Positions 7,619-50,768 of a DNA stretch of 64,000 bases are shown in pieces (the first letter of the stretch is position 1; each line of letters opens with the position of its first letter). Below the pieces are notes generated by a model. That model was not told the origin of the DNA. It saw only the letters and a program-made list of their open reading frames with translations, and did not search any database. Source of the stretch: Caerostris extrusa. Lineage: Eukaryota. The stretch lies in contig BPLR01000781.1 in assembly GCA_021605095.1 (NCBI GenBank), positions 66,414-130,413 on the forward strand, written 5' to 3'. A program made the translations under genes and the position numbers.

Positions 7619-7970
7619 CTAGGTCTCTTGGGACAACTCTTCCTGGGATATTTGGGATTTCGTTTCAGTGACAGAGTGGTAGGTCTTCTAAATTGAACAG
7701 TTGTTCTAATTTTCCTGACCCTGGTTCCATGAGCTCCTTTAACTACTCTCTTCTTTGCAGCTAAAGCCTTTGCTTTAGCAGGACCACTCTTGCCCTTTTG
7801 TTTAGGAGCAACTTTTTCGGGCTTCTCAGCTTTAGCTGGTGAAGCAGCCTTGGGTGCTGCAGGGGGTACATTCTCTTTCTTGGCTTCCTTGGGCTTCTCA
7901 GCTTTAGTTGCCTTTGCAGGAGCAGCTGCAGCTGTCGCTGGTGGTGGAGATGAAGGTGCAGCACCTTTAG
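7619..7970 (-). CDS. RPL23A: RPL23A exon 2. Ala/Pro/Lys-rich (H1-like) N-terminal extension, then [52 protein letters not shown].
   Basis: Six-frame ORF 7615-7986 matches the uL23 N-terminal region (KIRTS..FRRPKTL..PKYPRKS). Acceptor ttttaatag ending at 7971; donor GTAATT at 7618. Confidence 0.85.
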
Positions 7971-8651
7971 CTATTAAAATAAGCATTTAACATTTTAAAA
8001 GTTATTGCATAATTATTTTTAAGACCGCTATTTTTAGAGCAAGGATGATTAATAAAAAATAATCCGATACTAAAAATTTTTAAAGGTAAAAGCAATAAAA
8101 AATTAATCCATTTTCTAAATAATAAATTGTTATTTAACCGAAAATCTAAACACTCGTATAATTTTTTTTTTTTTTAAATATATCAAATTGAATATAAAAG
8201 TGATGTGATTAGCTCGATCTGAATTTAAAATATCTAATCGTAACAAAACAGACAATTTCATTTCAACAGATTTTCTTAGAAATAACTTATTAACGATACA
8301 TGAACTTAAGTTTAATGAGGTAACATAAATATGATCAACAAATATGTGTTCAAAATTGAAAAAAGAAAAAGTAGGCTTAAGTTTCTACACGCATGCATCA
8401 TTTACTTCTAAACAGATAACACAAATGTATCAATGAAATGGAATATGAATATAAAAATAATACCACAAGTACAAAGATATAAGAGTTACATCCCAAAAAG
8501 TATACAAATTAATACACGAGAATATAAAAAACGTCAACATATGAAGCCGCCATATCAGACATGAGGAATGAAGTATTCCAACATTTAATATATCTACATA
8601 AAATATAATCTTATTTGATTTTATACACAAATACAATATAAAATTAATAAC

Positions 8652-9399: not shown

Positions 9400-11610
9400 G
9401 GATTGAGGAAAAAAAAATCCAAAGATAATTCTCTCTTCAAAATTAACAAACATTTTACCAAAAAATATCCCAAAATTCCTCACTGGTTGGATCCACAGGT
9501 CTTATATTCTCATCTTCTGATAAAGCGAACTCTTTTGCTGAAAACCTTGAACTCTCCTTTCAAGAAAACACTGAACCTTGCGATTACTCACAAATTGAGC
9601 ATGTTGAAGATACAGTAACTTCCTTTCTAGCTGATCATCAAAATTATCATAACAATATTTTTTTCCTCCATCTGACATAGTTAACTTAATCAAGAATCTC
9701 AACATTCGGAAATCTTCTGGACCTGACAACATTCCAAATAAAGCCTTAATGTGTCTCCCCATTAATGCCATTACTCATCTTGCAAAAATCTACAACAGCT
9801 GTACTAAATATCACTACTTTCCTATCTGGAAAAAAAAAAAATATCATCATGTTTCCTAAACCTGGTCAAGATAGGGAAATTTCCTCAAAATTAAAAGGCC
9901 CATCAGTCTCCTTAGCTGTGTAGGAAAACTTTACGAAAAACTCTTAGTGAGACATATTACTTCTTTTTCGATAAAAATTCCATAATTCCAGCAGAACAAT
10001 TTGGATTCCGTCAACAACTCAACTTGTCATCAACTTCTACGTGTCACCAATATCATCACTGAAGGATATAACTATAAATTTTTACAGGAGGTGTCTTTCT
10101 AGATGTCAAAAAAGCTTTCGATCGACTGTGGCACAATGGACTGATCTACAAAATGATCAAACTTCAATTTCCAACTTGGATCACACTTATTAAAGAAAAT
10201 TATCTTAAAAATAGAACCTTTCAAGTTCGACTTCATAATGAATTCTCCAAAATCGGTCGTATTAGTGCTGGTACACCTCAAGGAAGCGTGCTAAGTCCTA
10301 TTCTCTGCAATATCTTTACCTACGACTTTCCTCAATGCACTAACATTTCCACTTGCCTATATTTGCTGACGATTCTGCTGCTGTGGCCCAAGGCGCTTCT
10401 ATTCTTTATGTTCAATACTCTTCAAAATTTTCTGAATATCCTAGAGGATTGGCTAACTAAATGGCGCATCACAATTAATGTCTCTAAATCTCAAGCTATC
10501 ATTTTTCCAAAAAGGACACTCCAGACAACCATATATTAATCTCTCCCTTTTTGATCAACAAATTGAATGGGTGACTAATATTAAATATCTCGGTTTTAAT
10601 TATAGACAATAAACTTATAGTTTCGAGCTCATATTCAAAGAATCAAAGAAAAATGTTGGAAAAATTTTTATTCCTCTACCACTCATTAATAAATTTTCTA
10701 AATTTTCTGAATATCCTAGAGGATTGGCTAACTAAATGGCGCATCGCAATTAATGTCTCTAAATCTCAAGCTATCATTTTCCGAAAAGGACACGCCAGAC
10801 AACCATATATTAATCTCTCCCTTTTTGATCAACAAATTGAATGGGCGACTAATATTAAATATCTCGGTTTAATTATAGACAATAAACTTATAGTTTCGAG
10901 CTCATATTCAAAAAGAATCAAAGAAAAATGTTGGAAAAAATTTTTATCTCACTCTACCACTCATTAATAAATTTTCTAAATTAACTTTGTCAAACAAACT
11001 TCTTTTACAAACAAGTTCTCAGGCCTATCCTTACCTATGCTGCCCCAATCTGGGGTCTAGCTGCACAATCTAACAAGAAATCTGTACAAATTATTCAAAA
11101 CAAACTCCTTCGTATTATCACTGGAGCACCCTGGTTTGTCCGCAACTCTACAATTCATCAAGATTTAAAAAATTGACTCTATTGACAACTATATTACTAA
11201 ACTTTCTAGAAATTTCTTCAATACCATTGCTACTCACGAAAATCCTCTCATCAAGGCACAAACTATATTTACGCAATTGAATGGAAAATACAAGTATCCT
11301 TTCTCTACTTCTAAATGGAATCGAAGCCTCAAACCACCATAATTTCCTGCTCACTTATCGCTTTTTTAGATATTTTACTTCAACGCATATTTACTGATCA
11401 TAAATTTCTTGTTACGTTTCCATACCGATGATTTACATTTTCTTACTTTCTTCTTTTTTTTTTCTCTCATCATACGATTACTATTATCTATTTATCATGA
11501 CTTTTCTTTCCTACTGCCTTCACATACCATTGAGTAGATGAACGCTTCGCGTTCAGGCACTCGACATCTTTATTCAACAATGATGATGAGGAAAAAAAAA
11601 AAAAAAATCT
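9400..11610 (+). mobile_element. Degraded non-LTR (LINE) retrotransposon fragment, copy A. Reverse-transcriptase region and 3' end, terminating in an A16 tract at 11593-11608. The 10428-10977 segment is duplicated (see repeat feature).
   Basis: Frameshifted RT motifs: ..GPDNIPNKAL.., GVFLDVKKAFDRLWHNGLIYKM, GTPQGSVLSPILCNIFTYDFP, ..TCLY(A)DDSAA.., WRITINVSKSQAIIF. More than 90 percent identical to the copy at 36.5-38.4 kb. Confidence 0.8.
10428..10977 (+). repeat. Internal tandem duplication inside LINE copy A: two units of about 275 bp (about 10428-10702 and 10703-10977). Each unit starts ttctgaatatcctagaggattggctaactaaatggcgcatc.
   Basis: Near-identical 275-bp units seen directly; ORFs 10153-10539 and 10653-10967 share the peptide NILEDWLTKWRI[TA]INVSKSQAIIF. 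Copy B has only one unit. Confidence 0.85.
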
Positions 11611-12059: not shown

Positions 12060-12450
12060 AAAACATCCAAACAAGCATTTTTATCTCGTATATCGACTGA
12101 TTTAAAGGTCCTGCAGGGAAATGATAACTAACGCAGGAAATAAAAATAACATTTATTTCCAAATTTTGGAAATTTTCAAAGAAAATAATAGTAGCAATGG
12201 TGATTATCATTCCGAAATGAATGGAGCACATTTTGAGAAGGGGTTTCAGGAAATTCTGCCCTTCATAAATGCTAACAACATTTTTGTCATGGATAATGAG
12301 CTATACCACAGCGCTTTTTTTATGAAACCAGTCCGAATGAGTTAATAAAAAGTGGACACATTCAAACAGGCCTGACTATTTCTTGGAAAATTGATATGTT
12401 GAAAAATGAACTTCAATTGGTAGTATCCAATATCCGTAAATAAATATGAA
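12060..12450 (+). mobile_element. Tc1/IS630-family (DDE_3) transposase remnant.
   Basis: ORF 12121-12345 contains ..ANNIFVMDNELYHSAFFMKPVRMS, resembling the D-D-E core (I.VMDNASIH ... LPPYSPDLNPIE) of Tc1-like transposases; no intact ORF. Confidence 0.5.
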
Positions 12451-15400
12451 TCATATAAGATAGACGTTTTGAAACTATTCATGGTCACACAATTCTTTGA
12501 TTATTTTCATATCACTGAAAATTGATTCCAATTGGAGGACAAATAAGAGGACATGTCGTATCAGAAATAAAACTTTCAAAAATGATGAGGTGATGAATCT
12601 GACCAAAAATGCTGTGAAAAGTAATTGCTACACATTTGAGTAAATGTCTTCAAAGAAGAAACCCGTATATAGTAATTAGACGTAATGACAGAAACAACAT
12701 TAACAATTGAAATTCCTCATTGATTCTGAATCAACGGAAGTTGCAAATTCAGTAAGTGATTAAGGTGAAATGGAAATTTAGTAATCAACATAAAACATTT
12801 GCACATTTCTTTTATAACGTATAAATTTTTAAAATTCAAATAATAATACCTAATTAAAAATTCAAACCACTTTCAAACGAAATTTTTGAATGAAATGGAA
12901 AATGTGTTGCATTAAAATCAAACTTTTCATACTCATATTCTTTTCATTTTAAACGAGTATGAATTTAATGAAAACCATGCAAACATCAACAGTACAAAAA
13001 AAAAAATTGCAATTGATGTATATTTTTACAAATAATAATAATAAAAATAATAAATAAAATGCTGAACTTTTTTACGTCGTAAAAAAAAAAAAAACCCATC
13101 TCGCATCGACAGTCCAGATATCTGGGGGGACATACGACAGGCAAATGCAGGCACTAACTCTAAAAATTCTCCCTTCATCAACTATCGATTGCTGTTCGTA
13201 GTATACATAAATAGAACATGACCTTGTTGTCATTGACAAAAATCATATTTAAAAGTTTCAATTTTTTCAAATCTCTTTTTTTACCCATACTTTCTTTTTA
13301 GAACTTAAAAACATTTTCTAAAGCCATTCCCATCAATAGCTCATAATGCTACTATTAGTATATTTCAATTTGCTTACCTGATTTTAAAAAAAGTAAAATA
13401 TAATTTATTTTTAAAACTTGAAATAATTTTTATTATTTTTATTAGAAACATATTGATAACTGCCGTTTAATATTTTTCGTCTAATCATGAGATAAAATAT
13501 ATTTATCTTTTAAATATCATTTTTTTATTTTTATTAAATGCTATTTCTTCCTACACATATATTTCTAAAGAATCATACATAATTGTAGCAGCCGGAACAT
13601 ATATATATATAAGATGAAAGAAAACTAACGCAGGCTTGATCGGGATCCAAAATTTCAGAAAATTGCGAAAATTTGAACTATCCATTCCGAAAATTTGGGG
13701 CTTCCCAGTTCCATAAATTTCGTTCTACATATTACCAAAATATGCCTATCTTTTTCAAAGAATATTACATTTTCCAGGGTGCGCAGAAGATCTACCTCCC
13801 CGTGGTGCGCCTGGTAACACTTTTAGTGGCTAAATGATCTGCAACTTGGCATTATTGTTAGATTAATGAACTCTGTTTCAGCATGCATGTTTTGTTGTAT
13901 TATTTTGTTGTTGTTGCATGTTGTTTTTTTTTTTTTCGTTGTTATTTTTTTGCTGTAACTGTTCATAATCTGTCAATGGAAATAAAAAAAAAATATTTTC
14001 CATCTTTGAAATGAGTATGCTTAAAATGTTCGTATAATTTTGTAGGCAATGGTGAAAAACAATATATTTGGGATATATATTGTTTTATACCATTAGCGGC
14101 CCCTATGATGCTTTCTTCCTAATTTTATGGATGGAATTTCGGTTGGAAAGTAGCAGGAGTGGGGGAGATGGATCTTTGTTTCATGCGCAATTTCACAAAA
14201 TTCGACATATAGTTCACAGAACTTCAGTGCTAACCACCGTCTCTGAGAGGAGGTGAATATGTGCCGAAATATTTGATAATTCGAAAAACGTGGTGCTGCC
14301 AGTTCAGAAAATATCACTGTCACCCACAATCTCCTCCCCCTCCCCCTTCTAGACAATTTTCTCCTCGGGAAAAAAAAACCCCTCTTTTCACTAAGTTCTG
14401 ATAATTTTAAGCACCAAAAATTACAATCTTCATGGTTACTTTAATATCTTTTGAGAGAAGTACACGGCGTCGTATTCACGACACGAATTCATTCTTGGCG
14501 AATCAAAATGTCGCATTTTTTTCATTTGCATTTTTTCTCATCTGTTGGATATTGCACACTTCAACGTAGGAAGTCCCAAATTATAACGTTAATTTGGTGA
14601 GTATAGCATTATTTTTTAATATAAAAAGTCCCCTTTTACTTTTACTGTAAGGTACAAACTAAATTAAAACAATAAATGATCACCAATTTTGCTATCTTAC
14701 AGTGGATAAAATGTGAGTAAATTTTTTTTGCCTATTTCTTTAACCAGAATTTGTGGGCACTTTTACACAATGGAAACGAAGTATCGTGTTCCACAAGAAT
14801 ACTCATTAATATGTTAGAAATGAATGAAATCATAAGAAGTTTTTAAGAAGCGATGCAGTATTAAAACAGGTGCTCATATATTTAAAATAATGTAGAAAAG
14901 CATTACATTATGTGAGACTGGCAAGAAGATAAGAAGGAGACTACAATGCTGTTTAGATACATAAAATTTAATTTTTAATAAGCGAGAGAAACAGCTAGGT
15001 ATTAAAAGACGTTGCAAATGACAATAATAATAATAATCTCGTACAAATTTTTTTATAAATTCAATTTAGACTGAGTATAAAACATCTGTCTTCCATATCA
15101 ATTTGATGAAAATATTTGTAAAAGTTATTCATTTCAGGGAAAACGATTTTTTCATAATTTCCCAAATACAGTGAAATAAAGGTTGAAGGAATTAAAGGAT
15201 TTATGAACTAATGTGAACTGAAGAAGGTTTGAAAAGGCAAACAATAGTGATAATAACGCTCATGAGTTGTTTTCATGAATTAAGTGAAAAACAAATATAT
15301 TTTTTTTTAATCTTTACGGAGTAGAGAAAAACGGTTTTGATTTTCATATTCAGAGTGACAAATACTATAGATATTAACAAAATTCTACTAGATAAAATTT

Positions 15401-15479: not shown

Positions 15480-16150
15480 TATTACCTAGTTTAACATATA
15501 CTGCCAGACAGAAAATGCAACACCATGAATATGAGGCCATATAAATATGCAAATTTTGAGGGATACGCCAGTGAAGGATGCAGATCTGAAATTATCGAGA
15601 TGATGTCAAGAACGAGCCACTTGGTGTGATAAGTCTCGATTCTACTTATTTGATGACAGTCGCAGGGTGAGATTCTGACTGATAGAGTCAATCGGATCAT
15701 TATTGAACATCATACCATAAGTCAATGTGGCATAATGGTTTCGATGCCGATAGACATTATAAAAGGTCAGCCCTCATATGCACCAAAAGTACATTGGCAG
15801 CACAATGATACATTGATGAAGTGCTGCAGTCGGTTGAAGTACCTTACATTCAGCAACTGAAAAATGGTATATTCCTTCAGGATAATGTGAGATCACACAT
15901 GGCATTCATCAGCAGACAAGCCTTGCAGCATATCCAGCTTCTTCCTTCGCCTGAAATGTTACCTCTTCTCTCATCGTGGCCTTGTATGTGATTGGTCTTT
16001 ATTTGTCTACTCTGCCCTAAGCTCAATCAAAGGACAAACTATGGAGAATATATGAGCTTCCATCCCTTAGGACACTATCTGTACAGTAACTGAATCTGTA
16101 CCTCGTAGGATGGCAGCTTGCATCCTACTTCCAATGATCCCCTATACATT
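15480..16150 (+). mobile_element. Degenerate Tc1/mariner-family transposase pseudogene fragment.
   Basis: Plus-strand frames give ..WSDESRFYLFDDS.., ..DEVLQ..VPYIQQLKNG.FLQDNVRSHMAFISRQALQHIQLLPSPEM.. This resembles the FQQDNARPH...LPWPARSPDLSPIE signature and is interrupted by stops. Confidence 0.6.
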
Positions 16151-20555: not shown

Positions 20556-20708
20556 TTATGAAGCATCACTATCTAAACGCTGTCTCTTTGGTGACAAAGA
20601 AGACATTGCACCTCCAAGGAAACCCTGAGCAGTTGAAAACAAATTGATAGGTGTATTACCATCCGTAATAAGAGCAGACTGAATTCCAAGGCCTTGAAGC
20701 AGCTTAAC
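20556..20708 (-). CDS. MVP: MVP exon 14 (terminal): [50 protein letters not shown] plus stop TAA at 20558-20556.
   Basis: Matches the vault protein C-terminus ([32 protein letters not shown]); acceptor ttgttgcag. Confidence 0.85.
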
Positions 20709-20835
20709 CTGCAACAAAATGAATTGAATATAGTAATTTGCATATAAACATAATTTTTAATGAATTAATGTATTCACAACTGTAAAATTTAAAACATGAA
20801 AATTTTTGTACTAAATAAATAATTATAAATTGTAC

Positions 20836-21024
20836 CTGGAAATCTTGTCCAGCAGATGCCACAGTCTGGATTGTTTCACGGCCAAGACTTTCAACAAGAG
20901 TTTTGAATTTTTCTGTTTCAATATCAGCAATTTCTCTCAACTTGGAAACTTCTAAATCATTTTGATCTTTTAAGTATTTCAATTCGTCTTCCCTAGCTTT
21001 ACGTAGACGTTCTAATTCAGTTTC
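20836..21024 (-). CDS. MVP: MVP exon 13 (ETELERLRKAREDELKYLKDQNDLEVSKLREIADIETEKFKTLVESLGRETIQTVASAGQDFQ).
   Basis: Conserved MVP coiled-coil/cap region (..[42 protein letters not shown]); acceptor ttttgtag; donor GTACAA. Confidence 0.85.
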
Positions 21025-21585
21025 CTACAAAAGCATACTAATATTAAAATCATATAAAATTTTAATTAACATTATCCTTATTGAGACGTTTTTTTACATA
21101 TATTTTGCAATAAAAAAACCCCCATAAAATAAATTGTTTGAATGAAATTATGTAAAAATTGAAGAACAATTTTGTTTGCTGCCACATTTAATTATTAATT
21201 TAGACTACTAGAACATATTTATAAATTTTATCTAATTTCCCTTAAGCTTTATTTTCTATCAATTCCACATAATGGCATATGACAAACATCATAAATGTTT
21301 TTGCTTGTTTTTTAAAAATGCAACTCACATAGATGACTTTATTTTAAAAATATCTATATTTTTCCCCTCCCATTTAACTATTATATATTATGTTTATAGA
21401 GGAAAACAGTATTTTATTTAGAAATTTTTTAAAAATTAGTAAAATTATTAACAAAAATCCAGAGATTATAAACAATGATTCAAAATTCACCAAAATTCAA
21501 GATTTGAATGTACAGATCTAAATTATCAGTTGAAAATAAAAAAATAATAATTAACATAATGAAAATAATAATAATAAAAACATAC

Positions 21586-21829
21586 AGCTTCAATTTTCAT
21601 GGCTTCTGCTTTTGATCTTGCTTGTTCTACAGCAGCTTCAGCTTCAATTCTTTGAGCTTCTGCACGACTCAAAGCTTCTGCTTTAGCCTGACCACAATTC
21701 TCAATTGCTATGCTACTGGCCTTTAATTCAAGCAAGTTCTTTTTCGATTTCTCAGCCTCTACTTCATCAGATATGCGCTGACGCTCAAGTCGTCCACGAG
21801 CTTCTTGTTCTCTTCGTTCAGCTTCATGC
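21586..21829 (-). CDS. MVP: MVP exon 12 ([82 protein letters not shown]).
   Basis: Matches [55 protein letters not shown]; acceptor tttgaatacag; donor GTATGT. Confidence 0.85.
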
Positions 21830-22465
21830 CTGTATTCAAAAATTTTTTATTCCATCACTTTCAATAATTTTTTAAAGAAAGTAATACCAATATAAATAAA
21901 TATTGCACTAAGGAATATCAAGATTCCATACTATGAGTATACTATTTGTTCTGCTAATTTGCAGAACAAATACTTGGGGTATAAGTTTGATTTACTTCAA
22001 CATGGATACTCAATATATATAGCAGAGGTGATTTTAGGTAATACTGAAAGTTTCTGAACCACATGTTAAATTTTCAGAAATTGAGAAAAAAAAATCTCTT
22101 CACTTTATTCCTGCAAAATTGCAATATAAAATTTGAAAAAGAAAGCAATATATGGTCAGCTTTTGCTTAATATGTATTGTATTTTACCATTATCTACACA
22201 TATTACAAGCATATTTATTTCAGAGATGGAGAAGTCAACATTTTGAGATTGTGTAACAGGAAATTTTCAGAAATGGTAGTATCAATTTTTCACAATCAAT
22301 CAAACTTTTGAGCTTAGTCATCCCTGATATATAGCATTATAATTAAAAACTATACATATTTATTAAATTGTTAAGAGATTCAAATAAGTTAAGCAACAAC
22401 TGAATCAATTATTATTTTGTGCATATAAGTTTTTTAGATAGGTTTGAAATAAATAAGACTTTTAC

Positions 22466-22677
22466 CTTGCAGTGGCTTCTTGACTCTGGGTGGTTATTTC
22501 TATAGCAAGCTGAACTGATTTTTGTAAAGAATCCCTAGTGCGTTGATCTACTGGTTCAACACTTTGAATATCCACACTGGTAATATTAAGGTTATTTTGA
22601 GGAAAATTGAAAGTTTTTCTGATCTTTTTATTATCATCCAAACCAAAAACAGCAGTACGTATGATTTTGGCAGAATT
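22466..22677 (-). CDS. MVP: MVP exon 11 ([70 protein letters not shown]).
   Basis: Near-identical to the MVP shoulder region ([12 protein letters not shown]....[37 protein letters not shown]); acceptor ttttcttttcag; donor GTAAAAG. Confidence 0.9.
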
Positions 22678-23165
22678 CTGAAAAGAAAATTTTATAAACA
22701 TAGAGTAATAATTTCAATTTTCTCTAACTACTATTTTGAATGTGGAATAAATATAAGTATATATAAAACTTAAAATGTAATGATTAAGAATAAAATTGAA
22801 AAGCATTATGAATGATTCTGTGTATCATCATTCTATTTTAAAATATCACATCTAATAAAAAGTAAATTAATACATATTACATATAAAAGCTTACACATAA
22901 ATTAAGCTAAAGAATAAATATTTATAGATAAAACTACTAAATAGCACTTGATAAAATAATAATTTAAAATGTATATAATGTAAGTTTCTTAATTGGCTTT
23001 ACTACAGTAGTATGTGACAAACTATGATTTTGTATGAAAGTTCTAATAATAAAATAGTATATATGTAATAACATTAATCTTATTTTGAACTTGGTTATTG
23101 CTTTCATTAAAAAGTTTCATACTGATTTGTCGTTAATTAATGATATATGAAGTTACAGTACATAC

Positions 23166-23307
23166 TTTATGAAAATCATCAAAATTTGTCCCAGCTACAG
23201 TACCACGAATTCTTGAAGCTACTGCCTTGCAAAGATCACCAATAAAATCAGGAACACTAAATAATTTAGCAGCTGCTACAGGACCTTTGTCACCAATATC
23301 AAAATAC
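23166..23307 (-). CDS. MVP: MVP exon 10 ([48 protein letters not shown]).
   Basis: Matches MVP ..[36 protein letters not shown]; acceptor aattatag; donor GTATGTA. Confidence 0.9.
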
Positions 23308-24045
23308 CTATAATTAATGATTAAATGTTTTTTTTTTATACAATTTAATTTTGTGAAATACTTTGCAAGAAACAATCCTTATGTAATACAAAAGAAAATT
23401 TACTAAAATATATGATTATTTTCATTGCTAGCAACAATTTTTTGTATTAAACTTGTAATAATTTTGCTACTTTTTAAAAAGACAAATAAATGGGAGAGGG
23501 CAAAAAAAAATGTTAATGAAATACTCAAAATGTAAGTATTTTAAATAAACATAAAAATTCTGATACAATAATTATTTCTTACTGTTATAATACGCCAATT
23601 ACAAAACTGCCAGATTCTTAGTCAATGAGCTCAGCCATTTAATTTAATCATTATGACATAGATATCATATCATAAGATGATTAGTTAATAGTTCTACAAA
23701 ATAATTATTTAAAAAAAAGAAAGGAATTCTAAAAAAGATTTACTTAATTCTACACATTTATAATGCAAAATAATTAAAAATATTATTCATTTTATCATTT
23801 AATATGTTTTTTTGTTTATCTCTTTAAATGACTAAGGAACTTTTTCTTTTAATTAAATAACAAAGATGGAAAACATGTCATTTAAAAACTAAGTATTTTG
23901 AAAAGTGAAATCTTTTTGTACAATGATTTATGTAAATTATATATAAATTTTTAATAAATAAAAAGTATTATTAAAATCAATCAAAATAATTTATGATTAA
24001 ATATAGATAAAATGATCAGTAAAAGTAACTATATTAAAAACTAAC

Positions 24046-24243
24046 CAATTATATGACAGCTGTAGCGATAGTCGAGCATGATCAGCAGTTTCAACTGTGA
24101 TAATATCTGTACAGAAATCAGGCCCCAATAACAAGCAAAGAGTTTTGATAACACTGGGTCTCTTTGGTTTATCACCAGATAAACTGAGTTGTGTAAACTG
24201 TTCATCAGGTGCTAACATTACAAGATCTGGACCGAATGTAACT
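24046..24243 (-). CDS. MVP: MVP exon 9 ([67 protein letters not shown]).
   Basis: Matches [69 protein letters not shown]; donor GTTAGT. Confidence 0.9.
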
Positions 24244-24511
24244 CTATTAAATAAAAATAAACAACTTTTAGTGTATAAAAGAAAAATTGGTTCAATTATT
24301 AAAATTAATGCAGATATATTAATTTGTACAAACAAAACATTCTTGAACCAATAAAAATTATAAGTGATTTTTTAAAAAAATATATACAAAGATTAAAAAA
24401 ATAGATAAATGAAATATTTTAAAATTCATTAATGAAAATTAGATAATTCATTATTTATACTTATAAATTTTTAAAGATTATCTAGTAAATAAAATATTAA
24501 AAATTCCTTAC

Positions 24512-24777
24512 CTCGATTTCTTTTGTTTATAATCGTATATCTGCACAGCAGCATTATGTGGAACTCTGAGAGTTATTGCTCTAGCCCCACCCTCTTCAGA
24601 TTTAGATTTTTGCTTCACTTGTGCAGCAGCAACTCCTCTAGCCATTCTCCAAGAACCTCGATCACTTAAAGGGTCAAGTCCCTGATTCAGAAGTTCTTCT
24701 ACCTGAGGTGGTAAGTCTTTGTCCCACAATTCCTCATCTTGGTTAAGCATATAAGTAGATCCAGATATAAGACGAAT
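24512..24777 (-). CDS. MVP: MVP exon 8 ([41 protein letters not shown]...[19 protein letters not shown]).
   Basis: Matches MVP [41 protein letters not shown]...[20 protein letters not shown]; acceptor ttgccag; donor GTAAGG. Confidence 0.9.
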
Positions 24778-24879
24778 CTGGCAAAAGCATTTCAAAATTA
24801 AACTATTTGTACTTTTATTACTTATGATTAACAAATAAAGTGAAAATAAAATTAAAATATTCAAATCATATGTACTTAC

Positions 24880-25029
24880 TTGACCAGTTTTAATATTTCT
24901 CACATATATTCCTTCATTTTCATCCAAAGCAATAGCATATCTTTTAGTTATTATTTCTACTTGAGTTGGTGGAATGTACTCAGTTGGTCCTTTGATCATC
25001 CAGCGATCTCCAGGATTTCGGTTAACAGC
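24880..25029 (-). CDS. MVP: MVP exon 7 ([50 protein letters not shown]).
   Basis: Matches [48 protein letters not shown]; acceptor ctttttcag; donor GTAAGTA. Confidence 0.9.
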
Positions 25030-25414
25030 CTGAAAAAGATATTCAAATATTAATGAAAATTAACTCAATACAAAAATGTAGCGTTTTCCTATAAATCTAT
25101 GAAATAGAAAATGAAAAATTTTGATTAAATTAGTACTTAAAAACAGAGGGAATATTAGTTTGATATTAGAAATATTACTATATTATAAACTTAAAATTAA
25201 ATTTTCTGTCAATATATTTATAACTAATACAATATTGTAATATCAAAAGAAGTAATAAATAATATGATCAAATCAAATAGTGTTGACAATATTCAGCTTT
25301 ATTTTTTAGATAAAGAAATATTACAGATTTTCAAACTAAAAATGGAAATTAACTGAAACAGTATTATTGATTAATTTCAATCAAAAATTTTATTAAAAAA
25401 AGACAATTCAGTAC

Positions 25415-25552
25415 ACCTACAGGTGTTTCACTATTATCTTGGAATGCTTCTCTTGCTTTTAAAATAAGTCCTTCATTTTCACTTAGAATATGTATATCTT
25501 GGATTCCTGCTTCCAGCTTTTCACCAGGTTGTAAAAAGAAAGATTTCTCACC
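25415..25552 (-). CDS. MVP: MVP exon 6 ([46 protein letters not shown]).
   Basis: Matches [38 protein letters not shown]; strong acceptor ttcttcccccttag. The GTACTG donor was chosen so that exon 7 is in frame; the alternative GTGTAC donor 2 nt upstream would shift the frame. Confidence 0.75.
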
Positions 25553-26935
25553 CTAAGGGGGAAGAAAATAATAATGCAGAAAACTCTAATTAGGTTTTCT
25601 AAGCTCAAATAAAATATTGTTCTATTAATTTTTAATTTCATATGCAATCAGTTTCTAACATAGAGTTTAATATTTTTCTATTTCAAAAACGTTCTATGCA
25701 TAAATTTCAAAATATGACAAAGAAGAGATATTTAAACTTAATAATAAACAAAAATCTTTAATTAAATATTAAGTTAAGAAAACTGTTTGCTTAACATTTT
25801 TTTTAAATAGTTTCCTTCTCTGGAATTTTCTTTTTTATTGCTTAAAAAAAAAGTCAAATTTATTAATATTATTTCAATGAAATTTATTATGATATTTTTA
25901 AATACTTTTCAGTAATTATTTTAAAATAAATATTTTTAAGATTTTCCTAAAAGACCATTTTTATAATATATGAAATTAGTATAATTTAAACAATGTATGC
26001 AAAATTGACAACTGTCGGTTAGATTAAAAATAGAGCAGTGCAATATGAGAGAAAGTTAATTTCTAAGGCTCATTTAATTACAATAAAATAATTTTAATAT
26101 GTAAAAATTAAAATTAAAATTTCACAATATCAAAAGATATTAGATGAAAAAAATTTCACAATAACTAATGAACTTTTGTTCTTTCAAAACTATATTTGAC
26201 AACCATATCTAATAAAGGTATTGATTAATCTATTTTTGCTTTTAAATCAGATGTTTGCCTTTCCACACAATCTATGGTCGAACTATACATAATTGATTTT
26301 AGACTGATGGAACAATCTGAAGACTGGCACTTTAAAGCTACTAATTTTGAATTGCTAATACATTTATAACTTGATATGAGTTCCTACAATTATTCAATTT
26401 AAAAAAATTACAATTATTTTATAAAAGTTATTAATTTCTTAATTAACACATAAGAGTTAAATTAATTAATTGAACAATTATACATACATAAAGAACGAAA
26501 AGAAATATATAGCATTTATTGATTTTAACCTTTAAAATTAATAAAACTTGATTTACAATAGAATAAAATGAAAATTGTATTTTATTAACCATATACTATA
26601 GTTTGGATTAAGCATTAGTAAAGATATCACATTGAAATTATAATGCTAAAAATGTTTTTTTTAACAAAAGAATTCATGTGCAAATATAATTCACCTTCTC
26701 TAATCTCTTATAATAATGAGTTAAGTTTTGAATATCTAATATAAATTATTAATAAATTTACTAAAAAATTCACAACTACTATAATTATTAATCATTATAT
26801 TTTAACTTAATTACATCAATGAGATTAAGTTTTTATTAAAAATATGTTTATTAACATTTCAATTAATTCGAGTTAAGCTTTTTTCAGTTATTATACAAAC
26901 AAAATATCTTAAATCAAAACAGATGTATATCAAAA

Positions 26936-27172
26936 CTTAATCAGCTTCTTTCTTCCTAATTGAGGTTTACCATTTTCACCAATAGGATCCAGAATAACAC
27001 AGTACTGACGATTTGAAAGTGTAGTAATTTTGATGATTCCCATTACATCTTCATAAACACCAGGAATGTAAGTTTCAGTGTCTTTAAGTGTAATTAACCA
27101 CTCCTCTCCATTTTTTCTTGTTTTACCAAATTCATCAACAAATGTCTTCTTTGCTTTAACATGGACAGCTTC
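26936..27172 (-). CDS. MVP: MVP exon 5 ([79 protein letters not shown]). The 3' end is uncertain because no canonical GT donor is in phase.
   Basis: Matches MVP [79 protein letters not shown]; acceptor ttttatag. An in-frame junction to exon 6 needs the exon to end on AAG at 26936, which is followed by tt, not gt. Confidence 0.65.
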
Positions 27173-28493
27173 CTATAAAAAAAAAAAAATCATAACAGCA
27201 TAAAATATTTTTACATTTTCAACATAAGTTAAAAAACGGGAACAAATATAATTTTATATTTTAATAATTATTATGGTAGAGTTGACACTGACAAATCTGA
27301 GATATATTCTTTTTTAATGATGAATTACTTATGATATTTAAACTTCAATTTGAAAGAAACTGAAAGACAGCAAATTACAATTTTGCATCATAATTATATG
27401 AAATAATTCTGTAAAACTGTCTCAAAATGCTATTTTTTTTTTTTAACTAATTCAAATTTACTAAAAACCATTGATATAACAGAACTTATAATATTAGAAA
27501 ACCCTATATTTTATTGCTTGAAAGTATAAAAAAATAATAGTCTATCCTAAAAACATAAAATTTATATTATTCCATGTTTGAGGATGCAAAGGAAATAATA
27601 AAGCTTTTACTTTAAAATCCATTTATTTAGAAAAATATGAAAAATGCATTATACTTTGATACTTATTGAATTGTTTCAAAAGATTAATTACATTTCATTT
27701 ATTAAAAAAAAATTAAATTAGTGTAAAATTTATTTTACTTCAATAATTAAATGATTAAATTAATATTATAAAAGACAGCATCAAATATTTTATAAACATT
27801 CATTTATTTTTATTATTAAATTACTTCCTATACTAAAAATCAATAAGTAAAAATATTTTTTAACTTCTTAATGAATCAATTTTTTTGATAGTTCAGTTTC
27901 AGAACTTTTTTTTTTTATCAATATTTATTTTTTATTATACAAAATCTCAAGTACAAATTTATTATGTGGATTAAAATGAGAATCAGAACTATATTCTTCT
28001 GATTCATCACCAGATCTTTACTTATGCTTATTTAAAAACATAATGGAAAACAAATGTAAGTGGTAATAAGTAATAAATAACATGCAGTCCTTGCCAATTT
28101 TTGGGAACTGAAGAAAATCAAGTTAAATGCCAGTAAAATATGAAATAGTAATATAATGACTACTGCCAGAAGTACAATATCGTGAGTGAACTCATGTTGG
28201 CCTCAGAATAATCCAAGGTATACCAAAATACTTATTTCAGTCCAGAATTAAAATTATTGTTCATACTAGTTAACTAGTAATGTATGTGTGAGAATATATT
28301 TTGTATATTCATGTTAGTCAACTAGTAATGCATTTATTTGTTTAGCAAAAATACAATATCAGATAAAAAAAAATAAGTAGAATGATTTGTTAAGGAATAT
28401 ACAAAATTTTGAAAAGCATATTTTTTTTAAATTTGAAATACACATTTTACATTTTCAACTTAACCAGCATAAAATTTATTTAAAACAACTTAC

Positions 28494-28720
28494 TTTATCA
28501 GTCAACACATAAGCATTGACTACATCCATTATTTCTTCATAAGCTCCAGGTAAATAAGCCCCTGTTTTTTTCACAATCCATTCTTCTCCAGTCACTCTGT
28601 CCTTTCCATCTCTATCTTTAGTTTCAGCTTTGGCACTTAACTTAAGAGCTTGGTTCGGATTAATTACAGTAGCCAAAATTGTTTCCACAACCTCTACTTC
28701 TTTACGAGGAATAAAAGTAG
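28494..28720 (-). CDS. MVP: MVP exon 4 ([76 protein letters not shown]).
   Basis: Matches the MVP repeat region [76 protein letters not shown]; acceptor tttcag; donor GTAAGTTG. Confidence 0.9.
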
Positions 28721-28989
28721 CTGAAACAGAAAAAAAAATTTATAATAATTATAAATAACAATATCTATAAATAAATTTCTTTTGTTTTAAAAAGTTGCAT
28801 GTTATAGGCATGAATAACTTTATGGAAGAATCAGTATTGCTATTAAATCTAACAGTTAGGAAAAACCTTTTATGTAAATCCTAAGTTTTAAAATTTTACT
28901 TTATATTATCTATATATTACAAAAAATAATTTATTAAACAACAATGCAAATAAATTTCGTGAGTATGCATACTTAATAATTTAACATAC

Positions 28990-29110
28990 CTGGACCTTCA
29001 AATAACCATTCATCACCAGCAGTTCGTTTAACCTCGCCATCTTCAAAGTCTCGAACTGCTTTAAGCCTGAGAGCACAATTAGATGAAACAACTGTCAAGG
29101 GAGTAATATC
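28990..29110 (-). CDS. MVP: MVP exon 3 ([41 protein letters not shown]).
   Basis: Matches [45 protein letters not shown]; acceptor tgaatttcag; donor GTATGTT. Confidence 0.9.
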
Positions 29111-30270
29111 CTGAAATTCAAATAGTTAAGTAAATGAATGAATAATGAAAATCACATAACATTTCTAAACATTTTTGTATCTTCCAAATCCTTTAGCTTG
29201 CTAAAAATAAAACATATGATAAATAATTTATTTTCTGATGAATGCAAATTATTCCTTGTACTTTAAAAACAACTACATATACTCACATGAACATTCTTGA
29301 TTTAACATGCATATAAATCATGAATTAAAAAAAAAAAAAAGTATTTGCCACATTGTTCAAGTAAATGTACTTTTATGTCAATTTGCAATTTTTATATGGA
29401 ACAATTTTTTTTTAAAAATATATAAAACCAAAATTTCTGATATGAAATTTGAACCCTATTATATTGTAAGATTTATTGAATGACAGAAAACCATCAAGAT
29501 ATCTAATTTTTAATAGTTTTTCACATCCAGCTTCTTGATTGTTTCTAGATATTCATCTGATTTGAGAATTTATTTACGGTAAGAAAACATTTTTTCCCCT
29601 TCTTTTTTGCAATGAATCAAGTATTTTATATTTTTACTAGAAACAATTAAAAATATTTAGAGTTGAAAAAAATTTTTTTTAATTATATTTATAAATTAAT
29701 TATGTACTTTGCCATCTGGATTATTTTAATTAACAGACATATAACATAAGGCATAAGGAGCAAAAATCTATTCATAGATTATATTAAAGGGAGGGGAAAT
29801 AAAATTAAATTATATTTTTCTTTTCTAGATAACAGATAAGATATGTTTCTTTATACTAAAATTATAACAAAGTAGCAAAGAATTTTTTTTGTTATCAAAT
29901 ATACTATAACATAATACATATTTTTATATTACAGAAAAGCTCTTTACAATATACTTCAAAAATTAACTAAGCAAACTTTTCATATTAAACATTCTTGAAC
30001 AGCTTGAAATCTGAAATCTTGAACAAATAATTTGATTATATTTATTTTTTTTTACTGACATTAACATTCAATGGATAATAATTCATATATTGTTAATTAA
30101 ATCAGCTGAAACTCTCAACTTAAAAATTACAAAAAGGAAAGAAATTTTGGAAAATTTAAATAATCAAAATTATTTGAAGGATTAAAAGAATGATTCAAAA
30201 ATAACCATTCACATTTTATTAAAAATATCTATTATATGGTTAATTTAATATGTGCAAAAATAATACATAC

Positions 30271-30466
30271 TGTATCAATAATTTCACCAGGATATAAAGG
30301 AAATGGATCTTGCTCTAATCTAACTTCCAAATCACCATGCTTCAATTTAATTTGACCAATTTTATCATACACTAAAGCACTTTCTTCATTTTTTACTACT
30401 GGATTACGAATAACACAATAATGACATGGAGGAATGATAACCATATCCTGTGGTCCATGGATGACG
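30271..30466 (-). CDS. MVP: MVP exon 2 ([66 protein letters not shown]).
   Basis: Matches MVP ..VTVPPRHYCTVANPV....[30 protein letters not shown]; acceptor tttttatag; donor GTATGT. Confidence 0.9.
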
Positions 30467-30633
30467 CTATAAAAATATCCCAATAATATTATAAAAAAAT
30501 TAAAACAATTTCTTAATTTTTTTATGAACTTGCAATAATTAATTGTGGTTAACAATAAATAATATATTCCCACTATACATAATATATATAAAAATAAGAA
30601 AAAGATTAATAATATTAGTGCAAATAAAAATAC

Positions 30634-30785
30634 CAGCCATTTTCTTGACGAATATAAGTTTTTGGTCCAACTTCAACTCTGGTAATATTAGAAGTCTGAT
30701 CCAAAACATGCATATATTTATAGGGCGGTATGCGAAAGATGCTTTGCTCCTTCGAGCTCCTGTCCGATTCTTTAATTGGTGCCAT
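30634..30785 (-). CDS. MVP: MVP coding exon 1. ATG at 30785: [50 protein letters not shown].
   Basis: Matches the MVP N-terminus (..[34 protein letters not shown]). The ATG lies 2 nt after an acceptor (T24 tract plus gcag), implying an upstream 5'UTR exon; donor GTATTT. Confidence 0.85.
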
Positions 30786-32605
30786 ATCTGCAAAAAAAAA
30801 AAAAAAAAAAAAAAAGTTCTATCAGTAAAAATCATACTTCTAGACAAAATATACTTCCATGTGACAAAAAAAAACTTCCAACATAATTTACAAAAATCCA
30901 TGCAGTAGTTAGGAGGATAGGAGTTAAAAAGATTTATCCCTTCTAATAAATTGATACAAAGTAATTTTTATAAATTACTTTAATAAATTCTGTAATTTTT
31001 TAAAAAAATACAGAATTTATTTTTTATAAATTCTGTATTTTTTTTTTAGACTAAGTAGTTATTACATAATATTATAATTTATTTAATAATGAATATTGAA
31101 AAAGTTGCAATATTGTAATTTATAATACAAATATAAAATGTACACCTCTAAAACATTTTTAAAAATAATGATTAGATAGTTTATGTAATTCTTTAAATAA
31201 CTACTCCTTTTGTAAATTATTTCTAAAGACAAATGAAAATTAGAATTAGCTTTTTTTTTTAAATATGCAAGTTGATTTCTTTTCCAATTTTAAAAAATAA
31301 AGCAAAGCAGGCAACGTTACTAAAGACACAAAATGTATAAAATTTGAGCCTTAATTACTAATTTATAAAGACTAAAAAATATATCTCTCAAAACATAAAA
31401 CCTTCATTAAATAAAATTAGATATTCAAGAGCAGAATATTTAGTTCTATTAAATAGCCAACATGAAAATGAAAGATTTTTTCTTTTTAAAATTTAAAAAT
31501 AAAAAAAAAGATAGCCTTATAAAATATATCTTAATATCTTGGCTTATAAATTACATGATTTAACAAGAAAAACATGAAATTTTTTTTTTTTTTTGAAAAA
31601 CAGCATATGATAGGCTGGTGTTCAGGAATAAGCACTAAACTATAATAATTGCTCATAAACTCTTCTTCATCAATTATAAATGCATTGAAACAAATTTTGA
31701 ATAATATGAGGGCACTATAAAAATTAAAAGTAACAATATTGTATATTGAATCAATTTATAACTCTTAATAAAAAAAATATAAAGAAACTAAAATTAAAAA
31801 TTTATACTTCTATTCTTGTTTACAACAGCATGAAAATTTTGAATGGCAGTCTGAATTTAATAATTAATCATCAATAACTGTAGAAGTTTCAAAGAAAGAC
31901 AACTTAATCAGAAGAAAAATACAAAGATAATCAGAAGACAGTTTTACATGACCATTTTTGTGGGATTAATAAATGATTTTCAGCAAATTGTTTTTTCCTT
32001 TATGAAGCTTGTTGATAAAAATGTTTTGAATATTTCTTACGAAGGCATAATCCGATTCAAACTTATTTTAAATAGTAGCAAAGCATAGTGAACTTGGATC
32101 ACTGTGAAAATTTGTTCTTCCTTGCTTTTAAATTATAAAAGTATATTGAATAAATATATAATAAAAGTATATTGAAATAAGTTTGCTTTTGTTAAAAATG
32201 TAACAGTACTTCTGCAATTATTAATTTCATTATGCCATTATTATCGTTTATTTTTTTAACATTTTGATTTAATGTGTTTACTTAATGAATATTAATTTTT
32301 TTTCATAATTTGACTTCTACACTTTTATTTGTCTATTAAATATTATATAAATCAATGTCTTTTTAAAATTGTTTAGTTTAGATATAATTAAACTTAATAT
32401 CTATGTAAAGTTTAATTAACATTCTAGAAACTGAATTCTACTGAAATTTTGATAAACTTGATAGCATTTAATGCTTAGAAGAATGATTTATTTTGCAAAT
32501 ATAAATAATTTTTCTGAATTTTAATTTTTAAACATCTTTTGTATGCGTGTTCGTAATTATTATTATTACTTATTTATTTATTACTATTTTTTTTTTTTGT
32601 ATGGT

Positions 32606-33829: not shown

Positions 33830-34500
33830 AAATTTGCCAATAGTGAGTATGGTCCTCTTGAACAATAATACGGGCCTCACAGAGATGTCTTAAGCTGTTT
33901 ATAATGTAGTCCATGAGGTGCATGGCATCACTCCTCTCAAAAGTACCCTACACATGCTCAATGGGATTAAGGTTGGGACAGTCCCAATAGAATGGCCCCA
34001 TTGGTAAATGAGGTGAGCACTGTGAGGAACAGACATCATCTGCTCGCAAAATAAGGATATTACCAACAGAGGCAGCATACGAATGAACAATAAGATCTAG
34101 GATGTTGTCTCTATATCTTTGAGTATTGACAGACCTTGGCAACACATAGGTCTGTGCAGTCACCTAACTCCTTATGTTAGCCTTCCACACTTTTCTTCCT
34201 ATTACACATTACTTCCTTCATAGATGCCACTTTCTCACATGTTAGACAGAAGATACATCAAGTGATTCTCTCCATATGTAAACACATTGAGAATCACAAA
34301 ACAAAGCGTGGGTCTTGCCAGTGAATAGAACACCTACCCACTGATTTTCAGTTCAATTTACATAATTATGTGCCCAATGTTTCCTGATGTGGCAAGAAGA
34401 AAGTGGGACATACAATACTAGTCACCTAACATACATAGCTCTTTCATGCAGCCCTTCTGTGTACTACCCTTCCTATAACAGAGATAAGAGCAAATCTAAG
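33830..34500 (-). mobile_element. Tc1/mariner-family transposase remnant.
   Basis: Minus-strand ORF 33948-34163: ..GNILILRADDV....LPMGPFYWDCPNLNPIEHV, resembling FQQDNA...LPWPARSPDLNPIEHVW; fragmented by frameshifts. Confidence 0.55.
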
Positions 34501-36519
34501 CAGTGATGAAGTTGAAGTACTGTTACACCATGCACTTCCTCAAAAGTACTGTTATCTGAGGAAGTTTCACTTCCGCAGGTCTTTGAAAAATTTAACAGCA
34601 ATTAGAAACTAGTTCTACAACCAATTTGCAACAGAACGGTCAACATTTAGTCATATTGCAATGTTGATGCTTCAAATTGACCTATAGCTCTTAAACACCA
34701 TTCATTTGCCTCCAACTCATTTTTACATTTTGGCCATAATGAAATTGATTGATATATCACTATTCCTTGAATAGCAACTCCCTCCCTAACCAGCTAGTTT
34801 TAAGCTATATCAAATTTATGTAAAACAATGGCAGTGCTTTTTATATTGTTATTTAATCAGCTTACTATTATTTGTAATATAACAAAATTTTAAGAATTAT
34901 AAAATACTTTTAGCCAATTTAAAATAATTTTTCAATTAGTTGCTTAACTTTTTGAATCCAATGTAGTTTAAATTGGCAATTGTAGAATTTATAATTAATT
35001 GTTGAAATACTTTTTAAAAATTACACATGCAGTTCAAAAAAGTAAACTAGCATATAGCAAACACTTTTTAAAAATGACAAATATCAAAATAATGAATTTA
35101 AATAGTAACTTCATTATAAAATTATTAAAAATTCTACATTAAAAGAAATATTATATTTACACGCTGCATAATATTTTACAAATTCAATTATGTACATAAA
35201 ACATTAATAAACTACTCTAAATATAGAAATTTTTTCATCCTAAATGTGCCTTTTTATGAGTTACAATAACATCACAAAATTTAATAAAACTTCAGTCAAT
35301 TCATACAATGTTAATAGGAAATATAGACTTACCATGGCATAGAATACTGTTCCAAAATTCAAAAGAAATATAGTAAGAATTTCTCTTTCAATGACATAAA
35401 TACATATACAATATGTATGAAAAAGAATTAAGATATAATTTGCTGCTTATAATGACTATAATTCAAAAGTATAATTTGCAGAATCATTAAGTTGCTTAAT
35501 GCATTGCAATTATTCGTTTTTTAAAAAATTGTAATAACTATAGACAATATTCAATATTTAAAGGAAGATCTCACATAAAACAAACATTTGCAAATCTAAT
35601 CAAAGGAATTAGAACATAGTAATTATACATAACTAAAAAAAAAAATTATAATCCATAAATAACTTTGTACGAACAAACAAAATGTATAATTTTAAAACTG
35701 TTCCTTTGTAGATAATGAATAGATAGGCTGTTTAAAAAAGATAAAATGGATAGGCTGTTTAAAAAGAAAGCAAAACAGTTTAACCAAAAATTGCTATATA
35801 ACAATATTTTGCATTTTATGTGCAAATTTCAGTTGATTGGGATTTTTTAAAAGTTAATTAAAAATATTAATAAAAGATAAACATAATTATATAAATATAT
35901 CTTATTAATATTTTTAATATACATAAAAATAACTCTCTTTATATATATATATAGAGAGAGAGAGATTTTAAATACTTTTGGAAATTTTCCCATATATATT
36001 TATTTGTAAATATGAAAAAAAAATTCATTTTTTATAAATACTACTTTTAAAATTCGTAAAATTGTGATTAGCTACATAATTTTTCAATAAAATTTATATG
36101 TTTGTTATTTTTATTATTATATATGTATTCATACAAAAGATTATTTAAATATGAACTTAATCTCTAAAGTAAATAAAATGTAAAAGAATATTACTTTCAG
36201 ATGAGGAGGCAAGAGGTGGCCAATCAACGTTATATAAATCCAGAATTTTATGAAAATGACTATTGCAGTACAATTAAAATATTACAATACTGCATAAAAT
36301 CCTAATCATATAATGATTACACTTGATCAGCCGGTATTGCACCAAATTACCGGCAGTCATGCAATCAAGTGACGCCCTATGTTTTCAAAGAAATACCAAT
36401 GATTTGACTTGACTTGACTTGCTTGTTAATGTTTCGATTTGTTTTATTTGGTTGTGAACAAAAATTTCTAACAATCTTCTGACGGTTTTTTTTTTTTCCC
36501 CTTAGTGCAAAGAAATTAA

Positions 36520-38380
36520 ATACCAAAAATATCCCAAAATTCCTCCACTGGTTGGATCCTCAGGTCTTATATTCTCATCTTCTGATAAAGCGAACTCTTT
36601 TGCTGAAAACCTTGAACTCTCCTTTCAAGAAAACACTGAACCTTGCGATTACTCACAAATTGAGCATGTTGAAGATACAGTAACTTCCTTTCTAGCTGAT
36701 TCATCAAAATTATCATAACAATATTTTTTTTCTCCATCTGACATAATTAACTTAATCAAGAATCTCAACATTCGGAAATATTCTGGACCTGACAACATTC
36801 CAAATAAAGCCTTAACGTGTCTCCCCTTAATGCCATTACTCATCTTGCAAAAAAATCTACAACAGCTGTACAAAATATCACTACTTCCCTCATATCTGGA
36901 AAAAAAGCAAATATTATCATGTTCCCTAAACCTTGCAAAGATAGAAAATTTCCTTAAAATTATCGGCCCATCAGTCTCCTTAGCTGTGTAGGAAAACATT
37001 ACGAAAAACTCTTAGTGAAACATATTACTTCTTTTTGCGATAAAAAGTTCATACTTCCAGAAAAGAATTTGGATTCTGTCAACATCACTCAACTTGTCAT
37101 CAACTTCTACGTGTCACCAATATCATCACTGAAGGATATAACTATAAATTTTTTACAGGAGGTGTCTTTCTAGATGTCAAAAAGCTTTCGATCGACTGTG
37201 GCACAATGGACTGATCTACAAAATGATCAAACTTCAATTTCCAACTTGGATCACACTTATCATTACAAATTATCTTATAGAACCTTTCAAGTTCGACTTC
37301 ATAATGAATTCTCCAAAAATCGGTCGCATTAGTGCTGATACACCTCAAGGAAGCGTAATAAGTCCTATTCTTTACAATATCTTTACCTACGAGTTTCCTC
37401 AATGCACTAACATTTCCACTTGCCTAATTGCTGACGATTCTGCTGCTCTTGTCCAAGGTGCTTCTATTCTTTATGTCATCAATACTCTTCAAAATTTTCC
37501 TAATATCCTAGAGGATGGGCTAACTAAATGGCGCATCGCAATTAACGTCTCTAAATCTCAAGCTATCTTTTTCTGAAAAGGACACGCCAGACAATCATAT
37601 ATTAATCTCTCCCTTTTGATCAACAAATTGAATGGGCAACTAATATTAAATATCTCGGCTTAATTATAGACAATAAACTTACGTTTCGAGCTCATATTCA
37701 AAAATCAAAGAAAAATTTTGGAACAAATTTTATCTCACTCTACCACTCATTAATAAATTTTCTAAATTAACTTTGTGAAACAAACTTCTTCTACAAACAA
37801 ATTCTTAGGCCTATCGTTACCTATGCTGCTCCAATCTGGGGTCTAGCTGCACAATCTAACAAGAAATCTGTACAAATTATTCAAAACAAACTTCTTCGTA
37901 TTATCACTGGTGCACCCTGGTTTGTCCGCAACTATACAATTCATCAAGATTTAAAAATTGATTCTATTGACAACTATATTACTAAACTTTCTAGAAATTT
38001 CTTCAATACCATTGCTACTCACGAAAACCCTCTCATCAAGGCACAAACTATATTTGCGCAATTGAATGGAAAATACAAGTATCCTTTCTCTTCTTCTAAA
38101 TGGAATCGAAGCCTCAAAACCACCATAATTTCCTACTCGCTTATCGCTTTTAGATATTTTACTTCAACGCATATTTACTGATCATAAATTTCTTGTTACG
38201 TTTCCATCACCGATGATTTACATTTTTCTTACTTTCTTTTTTTTTTTCTCTCAAATCATACGATTACTATTATCTATTTATCATGACTTTTCTTTCCTAC
38301 TGCTTTCACATACCATTGAGTAGATAAACGCTTCATGTTCAGGCACTCGACGTCTTTATTCAACAATGATGAAGAAATTG
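36520..38380 (+). mobile_element. Degraded non-LTR (LINE) retrotransposon fragment, copy B. Same 5' boundary and orientation as copy A; single copy of the 275-bp segment.
   Basis: RT motifs better preserved here: GVFLDVKKAFDRLWHNGLIYKMIKLQFP, ADTPQGSVISPILYNIFTYEFPQCTNISTCLIADDSAALVQGASILYVINTLQNFPNILEDGLTKWRIAINVSKSQAIFF (the F/YADD box); collinear with 9.4-11.6 kb. Confidence 0.8.

Positions 38381-49476: not shown

Positions 49477-50768
<1,292 letters not shown>

Follow-up and report, generated by a model that had tools for sequence, protein, structure and literature searches.

The stretch of the genome of the spider Caerostris extrusa considered here (64,000 nt of contig BPLR01000781.1, positions 66,414 to 130,413 of the forward strand; hereafter, the window) carries on its minus strand a gene for the major vault protein (MVP). 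This locus very probably represents a single-locus, vertically inherited MVP ortholog of C. extrusa that keeps the full architecture of the family and is intact, some of its bases being miscalled or rare alleles. Judged from the encoded sequence, its identity as an MVP ortholog is close to certain, and the intactness of the gene, taken on its own, is likely.

Gene structure and protein architecture

The MVP gene extends from position 30785 down to position 20556 of the window and comprises 14 coding exons, which in our splice model add up to a coding sequence (CDS) of 2619 nt that encodes 872 amino acids followed by a stop codon. The model was built by anchoring the stop-free minus-strand segments with MVP peptides found between 20.5 and 30.8 kb and by reading the bases that flank them. 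All exon junction phases close, and GT-AG borders are present in 12 of the 13 introns, which measure 102–1383 nt; only intron 5 (26935..25553) departs from this rule, its first bases being TTTTGA. All exons lie on the minus strand. Coding exon 1 (30634..30785) starts at the ATG at 30785, encodes residues 1–51, with codon 51 split, and ends at a GTATTT donor, while coding exon 2 (30271..30466) shows AG and GT flanks and a single mismatch with respect to the sister species Caerostris darwini. Exons 3 (28990..29110) and 4 (28494..28720), as well as exons 7 (24880..25029), 8 (24512..24777), 9 (24046..24243), 10 (23166..23307), 11 (22466..22677), and 13 (20836..21024), were delimited by the splice model and the comparison with C. 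darwini. Exon 5 (26936..27172) consists of 79 codons, runs from phase 0 to phase 0, and encodes at its 3′ end a near-invariant segment of 12 residues; the position of the acceptor of exon 6 (25421..25552) is fixed by an in-frame TAG stop located directly upstream. The cap-helix region starts in exon 12 (21586..21829), according to the splice model, the alignment with solved chains, and the comparison with C. darwini, and exon 14 (20556..20708) finishes with a TAA stop that ends at 20556. A first-pass annotation of the window had described a complete MVP gene of 14 coding exons with repeat, shoulder, and cap-helix regions, and the splice model, the Pfam matches, and the alignment with PDB chains place such a gene there; its remark that the exon phases close apart from one junction is also borne out, that junction being the one at intron 5. 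The product of about 874 amino acids given in that annotation is reduced to 872, and of the bounds that it proposed (20556–30830) the lower one coincides with the final base of the stop codon, whereas the upper one overshoots the ATG by 45 nt, a stretch that holds an acceptor site and a run of T.

The predicted protein displays matches far above the gathering scores to Vault (four stretches, E 1e-68), Vault_2 (two stretches), Vault_3, Vault_4, and MVP_shoulder, the last of which (PF11978) covers residues 534–651 over profile positions 1–118 of 118 (E 1e-51). In a phmmer comparison with the PDB sequences, the solved mammalian MVP chains are matched with 1135–1150 bits, residues 12–858 of the spider protein being aligned with residues 3–854 of the chain. 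Within this alignment, the N-terminal repeat region follows residues 3 to ~520 of the solved MVPs without large gaps, the join between exons 5 and 6 (QLGRKKLIK|...) is crossed with no gap at all, and residues ~652–858 align continuously with the C-terminal part, that is, the cap-helix and the cap-ring. In addition, a PDB chain of 140 amino acids named major vault protein (9z5n_B) matches residues 756–855. Taken together, the Pfam and phmmer matches cannot be due to chance.

Orthology, selection, and origin of the locus

A large protein search produced 2595 matches at E ≤ 1e-50, the best 120 of which all contain the five MVP Pfam domains; those among them that bear an informative name are called MVP. 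The top match is the major vault protein of C. darwini (100% identity after rounding), followed by other spiders, such as Argiope bruennichi (88%), Trichonephila clavata (85%), Oedothorax (82%), Uloborus (81%), and Parasteatoda (78%), and further out by the horseshoe crab Limulus (70–72%), the scorpion Centruroides (69%), and myriapods, and then by other metazoans (65–68%). MVP identity thus drops with phylogenetic distance, from spiders to other chelicerates and then to other metazoans, and annotated MVP orthologs exist in scorpions, horseshoe crabs, and myriapods as well as in a range of spiders. In this BLASTP-type check, which the first-pass annotation had suggested, the best matches are annotated MVPs, and a non-MVP best match is excluded. 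The 90% cluster of the top match has two members, GIY56201.1 from C. darwini and GIY97456.1 from C. extrusa. The latter, a deposited protein of 945 amino acids, can be rebuilt from the window in 945 of its 945 residues by means of an 18-exon model in which all introns are GT-AG, and it has in common with the protein described here the private residues G50, C51, T403, and E797.

The MVP of C. darwini (GIY56201.1) is encoded by 14 coding exons of equal lengths and phases, and 868 of the 872 residues of the shared region are identical. None of the 14 exons shows a net indel between the two species, and the 35 mismatches along the 2619 nt (30.5 synonymous and 4.5 non-synonymous) give rise to four amino acid differences. 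These figures correspond to a synonymous divergence (dS) of 0.055 and a non-synonymous divergence (dN) of 0.0022, that is, a dN/dS of 0.04, while the MVP introns differ by ~6% and contain many indels. These substitutions show that strong purifying selection acts on the gene. The 13 introns of the C. darwini gene are all GT-AG, and its locus (BPLQ01011166.1) is collinear with the window from 9.1 to 38.5 kb (~29 kb), with an identity of ~85–96%, mostly ~94%.

These data also bear on the possibility that the locus is a contaminant or an MVP acquired horizontally, for example from a protist symbiont. Some MVP matches in winged-insect assemblies have made this possibility familiar (PMC11219742), although it finds no support at this locus and has practically no probability here. 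The nearest relatives of the protein are spiders and its identity follows phylogeny; the 13 AT-rich introns match the composition of the host, with a GC content at third codon positions (GC3) of 0.22 in the MVP CDS versus an intron GC of 0.20; and the locus is collinear with that of the sister species over ~29 kb and shares its contig with RPL23A and NACA, two housekeeping genes of the host. Contamination, which the first-pass annotation had named as a way in which its proposal could fail, and horizontal transfer are therefore discarded on the grounds of synteny, composition, and phylogenetic order of the matches. On the other hand, the same annotation had regarded the genome as AT-rich and insect-like and the N-terminal extension of RPL23A as being of insect type. 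The source is an orb-weaving spider (Araneae, Araneidae), in which the same extension is present, and AT-richness together with an extended RPL23A does not mark a genome as that of an insect.

The intron 5 donor and the deposited gene model

The only irregular splice site of the gene is the donor of intron 5, whose first two bases (26934..26935, minus strand) are TT instead of GT. At this junction, the window reads ATTAAG|TTTTGA and C. darwini reads ATTAAG|GTTTGA (i.e., AAG|TTTTGA versus AAG|GTTTGA), which amounts to a G-to-T difference at position +1; the exons on both sides, like the other 12, are open. The segment of 12 residues encoded at the 3′ end of exon 5 is highly conserved, since all but one of its 12 columns are conserved in at least 25 of the 32 sequences of a metazoan alignment. 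Several ways of reading the junction as assembled were considered and rejected: the GT located one base upstream of the end of exon 5 leads to a frameshift and a stop after ~25 codons, reading through intron 5 reaches a TGA at once (K-F-stop), and an upstream extension of exon 6 is blocked by the TAG directly before it. When GT or GC donors and AG acceptors were sought near the exon 5/6 junction, no combination was found that preserves both the frame and the conserved sequence. The true mRNA would join exon 5 straight to exon 6 (K311|G312), as the C. darwini model does.

The deposited C. extrusa protein, which is encoded by the same DNA, offers a different solution. Its gene model takes as donor a GT that falls within the Gly300 codon (26971) and adds a micro-exon of 41 nt (26695..26735, minus strand) that is present only in this model and encodes the peptide DIQNLTHYYKRLEK, so that this peptide substitutes for the near-invariant 12-residue segment in GIY97456.1. 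The 872-residue model restores the conserved segment but requires a donor that is either non-canonical or miscalled. It is highly improbable that the deposited 18-exon model, with its Gly300-codon donor, its micro-exon coding for DIQNLTHYYKRLEK, and an N-terminal extension of 71 amino acids, represents the true transcript. In its favor, all its introns are GT-AG, it is in frame, it is reproduced exactly from the window, and the annotation from which it comes drew on cDNA-seq hints (PMC8692038). However, DIQNLTHYYKRLEK has no match in any other MVP of the 32-sequence alignment and displaces a segment that is highly conserved across it; the C. darwini counterpart of the micro-exon is 45 nt long, differs by two indels that would break the frame, and behaves like an intron; the C. 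darwini model takes the direct K|G join; and the N-terminal extensions differ between both Caerostris models and are absent from Argiope, Uloborus, and Parasteatoda isoform X2. AUGUSTUS/BRAKER permits canonical introns only, and a predictor of this kind is expected to need a workaround if a donor base is wrong. Therefore, given also the intron-like character of the stretch in C. darwini and the unmatched peptide, the micro-exon is best read as such a workaround: it is probably, on sequence grounds, a gene-predictor artifact that lies outside the true mRNA. This has some curatorial value, because the deposited C. extrusa protein probably contains a spurious micro-exon peptide within a near-invariant segment of the repeat domain.

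Possible draft errors, rare alleles, or recent inactivation

The second anomaly of the gene lies at the end of coding exon 1, whose last five bases, GGCTG (30634..30638, minus strand), encode G50-C51 together with the C at 30466; in C. darwini the corresponding bases are GAGCG and encode E-R. In the alignment, 30 of 30 further MVPs have E at position 50, and the residue after it is always R, K, or H, in most cases R or K. Both anomalies can be written as the loss of one base and the gain of one T within 4 nt (GGTTT to GTTTT and GAGCGG to GGCTGG), a pattern that would resemble a long-read consensus error. The draft assembly of C. extrusa is Nanopore-based and has a scaffold N50 of 98 kb, a BUSCO score of 82.7%, and a BRAKER annotation, 10x/Illumina data being described for C. 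darwini (PMC8692038). The two oddities may be draft errors or real variants, and the TT donor and the G50-C51 codons are most likely base errors or rare alleles in this draft. Either way, the draft sequence of the MVP locus contains two suspicious bases or codons, a point of use for curation.

Several observations weigh against an intact gene with a few faulty bases. In the sequence as assembled, no canonical splice yields the conserved product, and an otherwise invariant residue, E50, is replaced. Furthermore, no net indel occurs along the 2619 nt of CDS, and the coding sequences of the neighbors RPL23A and NACA look intact; therefore, errors do not seem to be frequent in this part of the assembly, which weakens the explanation by assembly error. 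Finally, no demonstration of a vault particle in a spider is known to us, nor did a literature search yield one. An alternative is that the C. extrusa MVP gene, or the sequenced allele, has been freshly inactivated, the G-to-T change at donor position +1 being real and the change from E50-R51 to G-C being a second lesion; the outcome would be retention of the intron (K-F-stop), a shift of frame if the GT one base upstream served as donor, or the in-frame skipping of the 79-codon exon 5. This alternative agrees with the presence of the TT donor and of the GGCTG exon 1 end in both the assembly and its deposited annotation, with the fact that both changes strike otherwise invariant features, with a CDS that elsewhere gives no sign of a high error rate, and with the repeated loss of MVP in ecdysozoans (PMC11219742). 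Nevertheless, it is unlikely, because dN/dS is 0.04, none of the 14 exons contains a frameshift or a stop, all other splice sites are intact, and the anomalies fit the kind of consensus error that would be expected in a lower-quality long-read draft; moreover, only genes expressed at >0.1 entered the functional gene set (PMC8692038), which suggests that the deposited model is expressed. More generally, there is little probability that the donor change and the E50 replacement are both real, be it as the onset of MVP loss in a spider lineage or as a functional non-canonical splice; if true, these changes would enlarge the record of repeated vault losses in Ecdysozoa by one datable case. The reading rated as most likely is that the gene is intact and that the bases in question are miscalls or rare alleles.

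The 5′ end of the gene

The conserved MVP protein starts at MAPIKE, and an acceptor (gcag) is found 2 nt before the ATG at 30785. Because of the position of this acceptor, at least one exon must lie 5′ of coding exon 1. The deposited models place there an upstream exon (HFHKILDLYNVDWPPLASSSE; 36195..36259, minus strand) that is spliced to this acceptor, and it is likely to be either a 5′ untranslated region (UTR) or an N-terminal extension that only the gene models of related orb-weavers share. Still further upstream, the deposited C. extrusa model has two more exons, at 43447-43431 (17 nt, the first exon) and 43347-43219, also on the minus strand; it is doubtful whether they are coding, since the C. 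darwini model starts differently. In fact, the N-terminal extension has 26 amino acids in the C. darwini model versus 71 in that of C. extrusa, and the Caerostris extensions are unrelated to the N-termini of Argiope, Uloborus, and Parasteatoda (NCBI isoform X2). To judge from these comparisons, the upstream exons are probably 5′ UTR, and the N-terminal extension of the deposited C. extrusa protein is probably spurious.

Neighboring genes and mobile elements

The MVP gene is flanked on the same strand by two other recognizable genes. One of them encodes RPL23A/uL23 (7618-7986, with further exons at ~7440-7275 and 6459-6370), which has an N-terminal extension rich in Ala, Pro, and Lys, and the other is an uninterrupted NACA-like open reading frame (ORF) of 233 amino acids (49480-50178) with NAC and HYPK-UBA domains. 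Mobile elements have also left traces in the window. Two retroelement fragments of ~2 kb (9456-11586 and 36521-38372, both on the plus strand) are 92–94% identical to each other and carry a reverse-transcriptase domain (Pfam RVT_1); neither copy has a counterpart in the C. darwini locus, and both look like lineage-specific insertions. The second copy (36521-38372) sits in antisense orientation within the long 5′ intron of the deposited MVP model. HDV-like ribozymes are often found at the 5′ ends of non-long-terminal-repeat (non-LTR) retrotransposons, and a sub-threshold Rfam match to the HDV-like ribozyme RF02682 is located at 13778-13841 on the plus strand (28.7 bits versus a gathering score of 44, E 0.26), which may well be due to chance. 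Finally, short ORFs at ~12106-12342 (plus strand), 15809-15988 (plus strand), and 33951-34163 (minus strand) look by eye like remnants of Tc1/mariner-type transposases, with no significant Pfam match.

Vault partners and the distribution of MVP

The accessory components of the vault were also sought around the MVP gene. One MVP copy was recognized within the window in coarse ORF screens, and no TEP1- or PARP-like gene was recognized in coarse ORF screens of the window and Pfam screens of the neighbors of MVP; these and the following negatives apply to the 64 kb of the window only. The Rfam scan of the window gave no match at the gathering thresholds and, at E ≤ 1, two sub-threshold matches at chance level and no Vault RNA; ARAGORN detected no tRNA in the window. 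A literature search provided no relevant report on spider vaults or spider TEP1. With regard to the distribution of MVP itself, no arthropod MVP had been found in an earlier survey, and its loss was inferred (Daly et al., 2013; PMC3762200). The premise of the first-pass annotation on the absence of vaults echoes this view, which was overturned in 2024, when MVP orthologs were reported in 41 ecdysozoan taxa and in most ecdysozoan lineages, Chelicerata included (PMC11219742, 2024). According to that work, the loss of MVP in arachnids is confined to Acari, the protein having also been lost in Pterygota, Malacostraca, and others, and the spider Parasteatoda is included in its alignment (PMC11219742). 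The retention of MVP in spiders is thus already published, and the MVPs of C. extrusa and C. darwini are already deposited and named in GenBank. The MVP gene had been presented in the first-pass annotation as phylogenetically informative; since MVP is routinely annotated in chelicerates, spiders among them, and its retention in arachnids has been reported (PMC11219742), the locus adds no new phylogenetic information. For the same reasons, that is, the prior deposit of the gene and the published retention in arachnids, the picture of vault distribution is left unchanged.

Comparison with known vault systems

In the C. darwini locus, the closest system available, intron 5 starts with a canonical GT, residues 50-51 are E-R, and the two retroelement insertions of the window are absent. 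A more distant example is the salmon louse, which possesses three paralogs of the same family (LsMvp1-3), whereas a single MVP was recognized in the C. extrusa window. In the louse, Mvp2 has a Tep1 homolog as its neighbor on the opposite strand, and neither vPARP nor vault RNA was detected (PMC11219742). As to the particle, what is known of rat and human vaults indicates that MVP alone is sufficient for the shell, with TEP1, vPARP, and vault RNA as accessory components (see also PMC11219742).

The rat and human proteins (PDB 4V60, 4HL8, 7PKZ, 9Z4W) display the same order of repeats, shoulder, cap-helix, and cap-ring as the spider MVP and are collinear with it along their full length. Several differences accompany this likeness: compared with mammalian MVP, the spider protein is extended by ~9 residues at the N-terminus and shows one short indel within repeat 3; its loop at ~450-470 is ~7 residues longer, its linker at ~622-630 is shorter, and it ends in a short C-terminal tail of basic and acidic character. 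Rat MVP has nine N-terminal repeat domains. The full-length homology to MVPs that form particles suggests, by analogy, that the spider MVP may form them too, and the same assembly would be expected because all its regions are kept collinear with those of the solved proteins. By analogy with the rat and human particles, 78 copies of the spider MVP would self-assemble into a hollow vault shell of 13 MDa composed of two 39-mer halves; the N-terminal repeats would build the body, with the N-termini meeting at the waist, the shoulder would cap this body, and the coiled coils of the cap-helix would bundle each 39-mer half.

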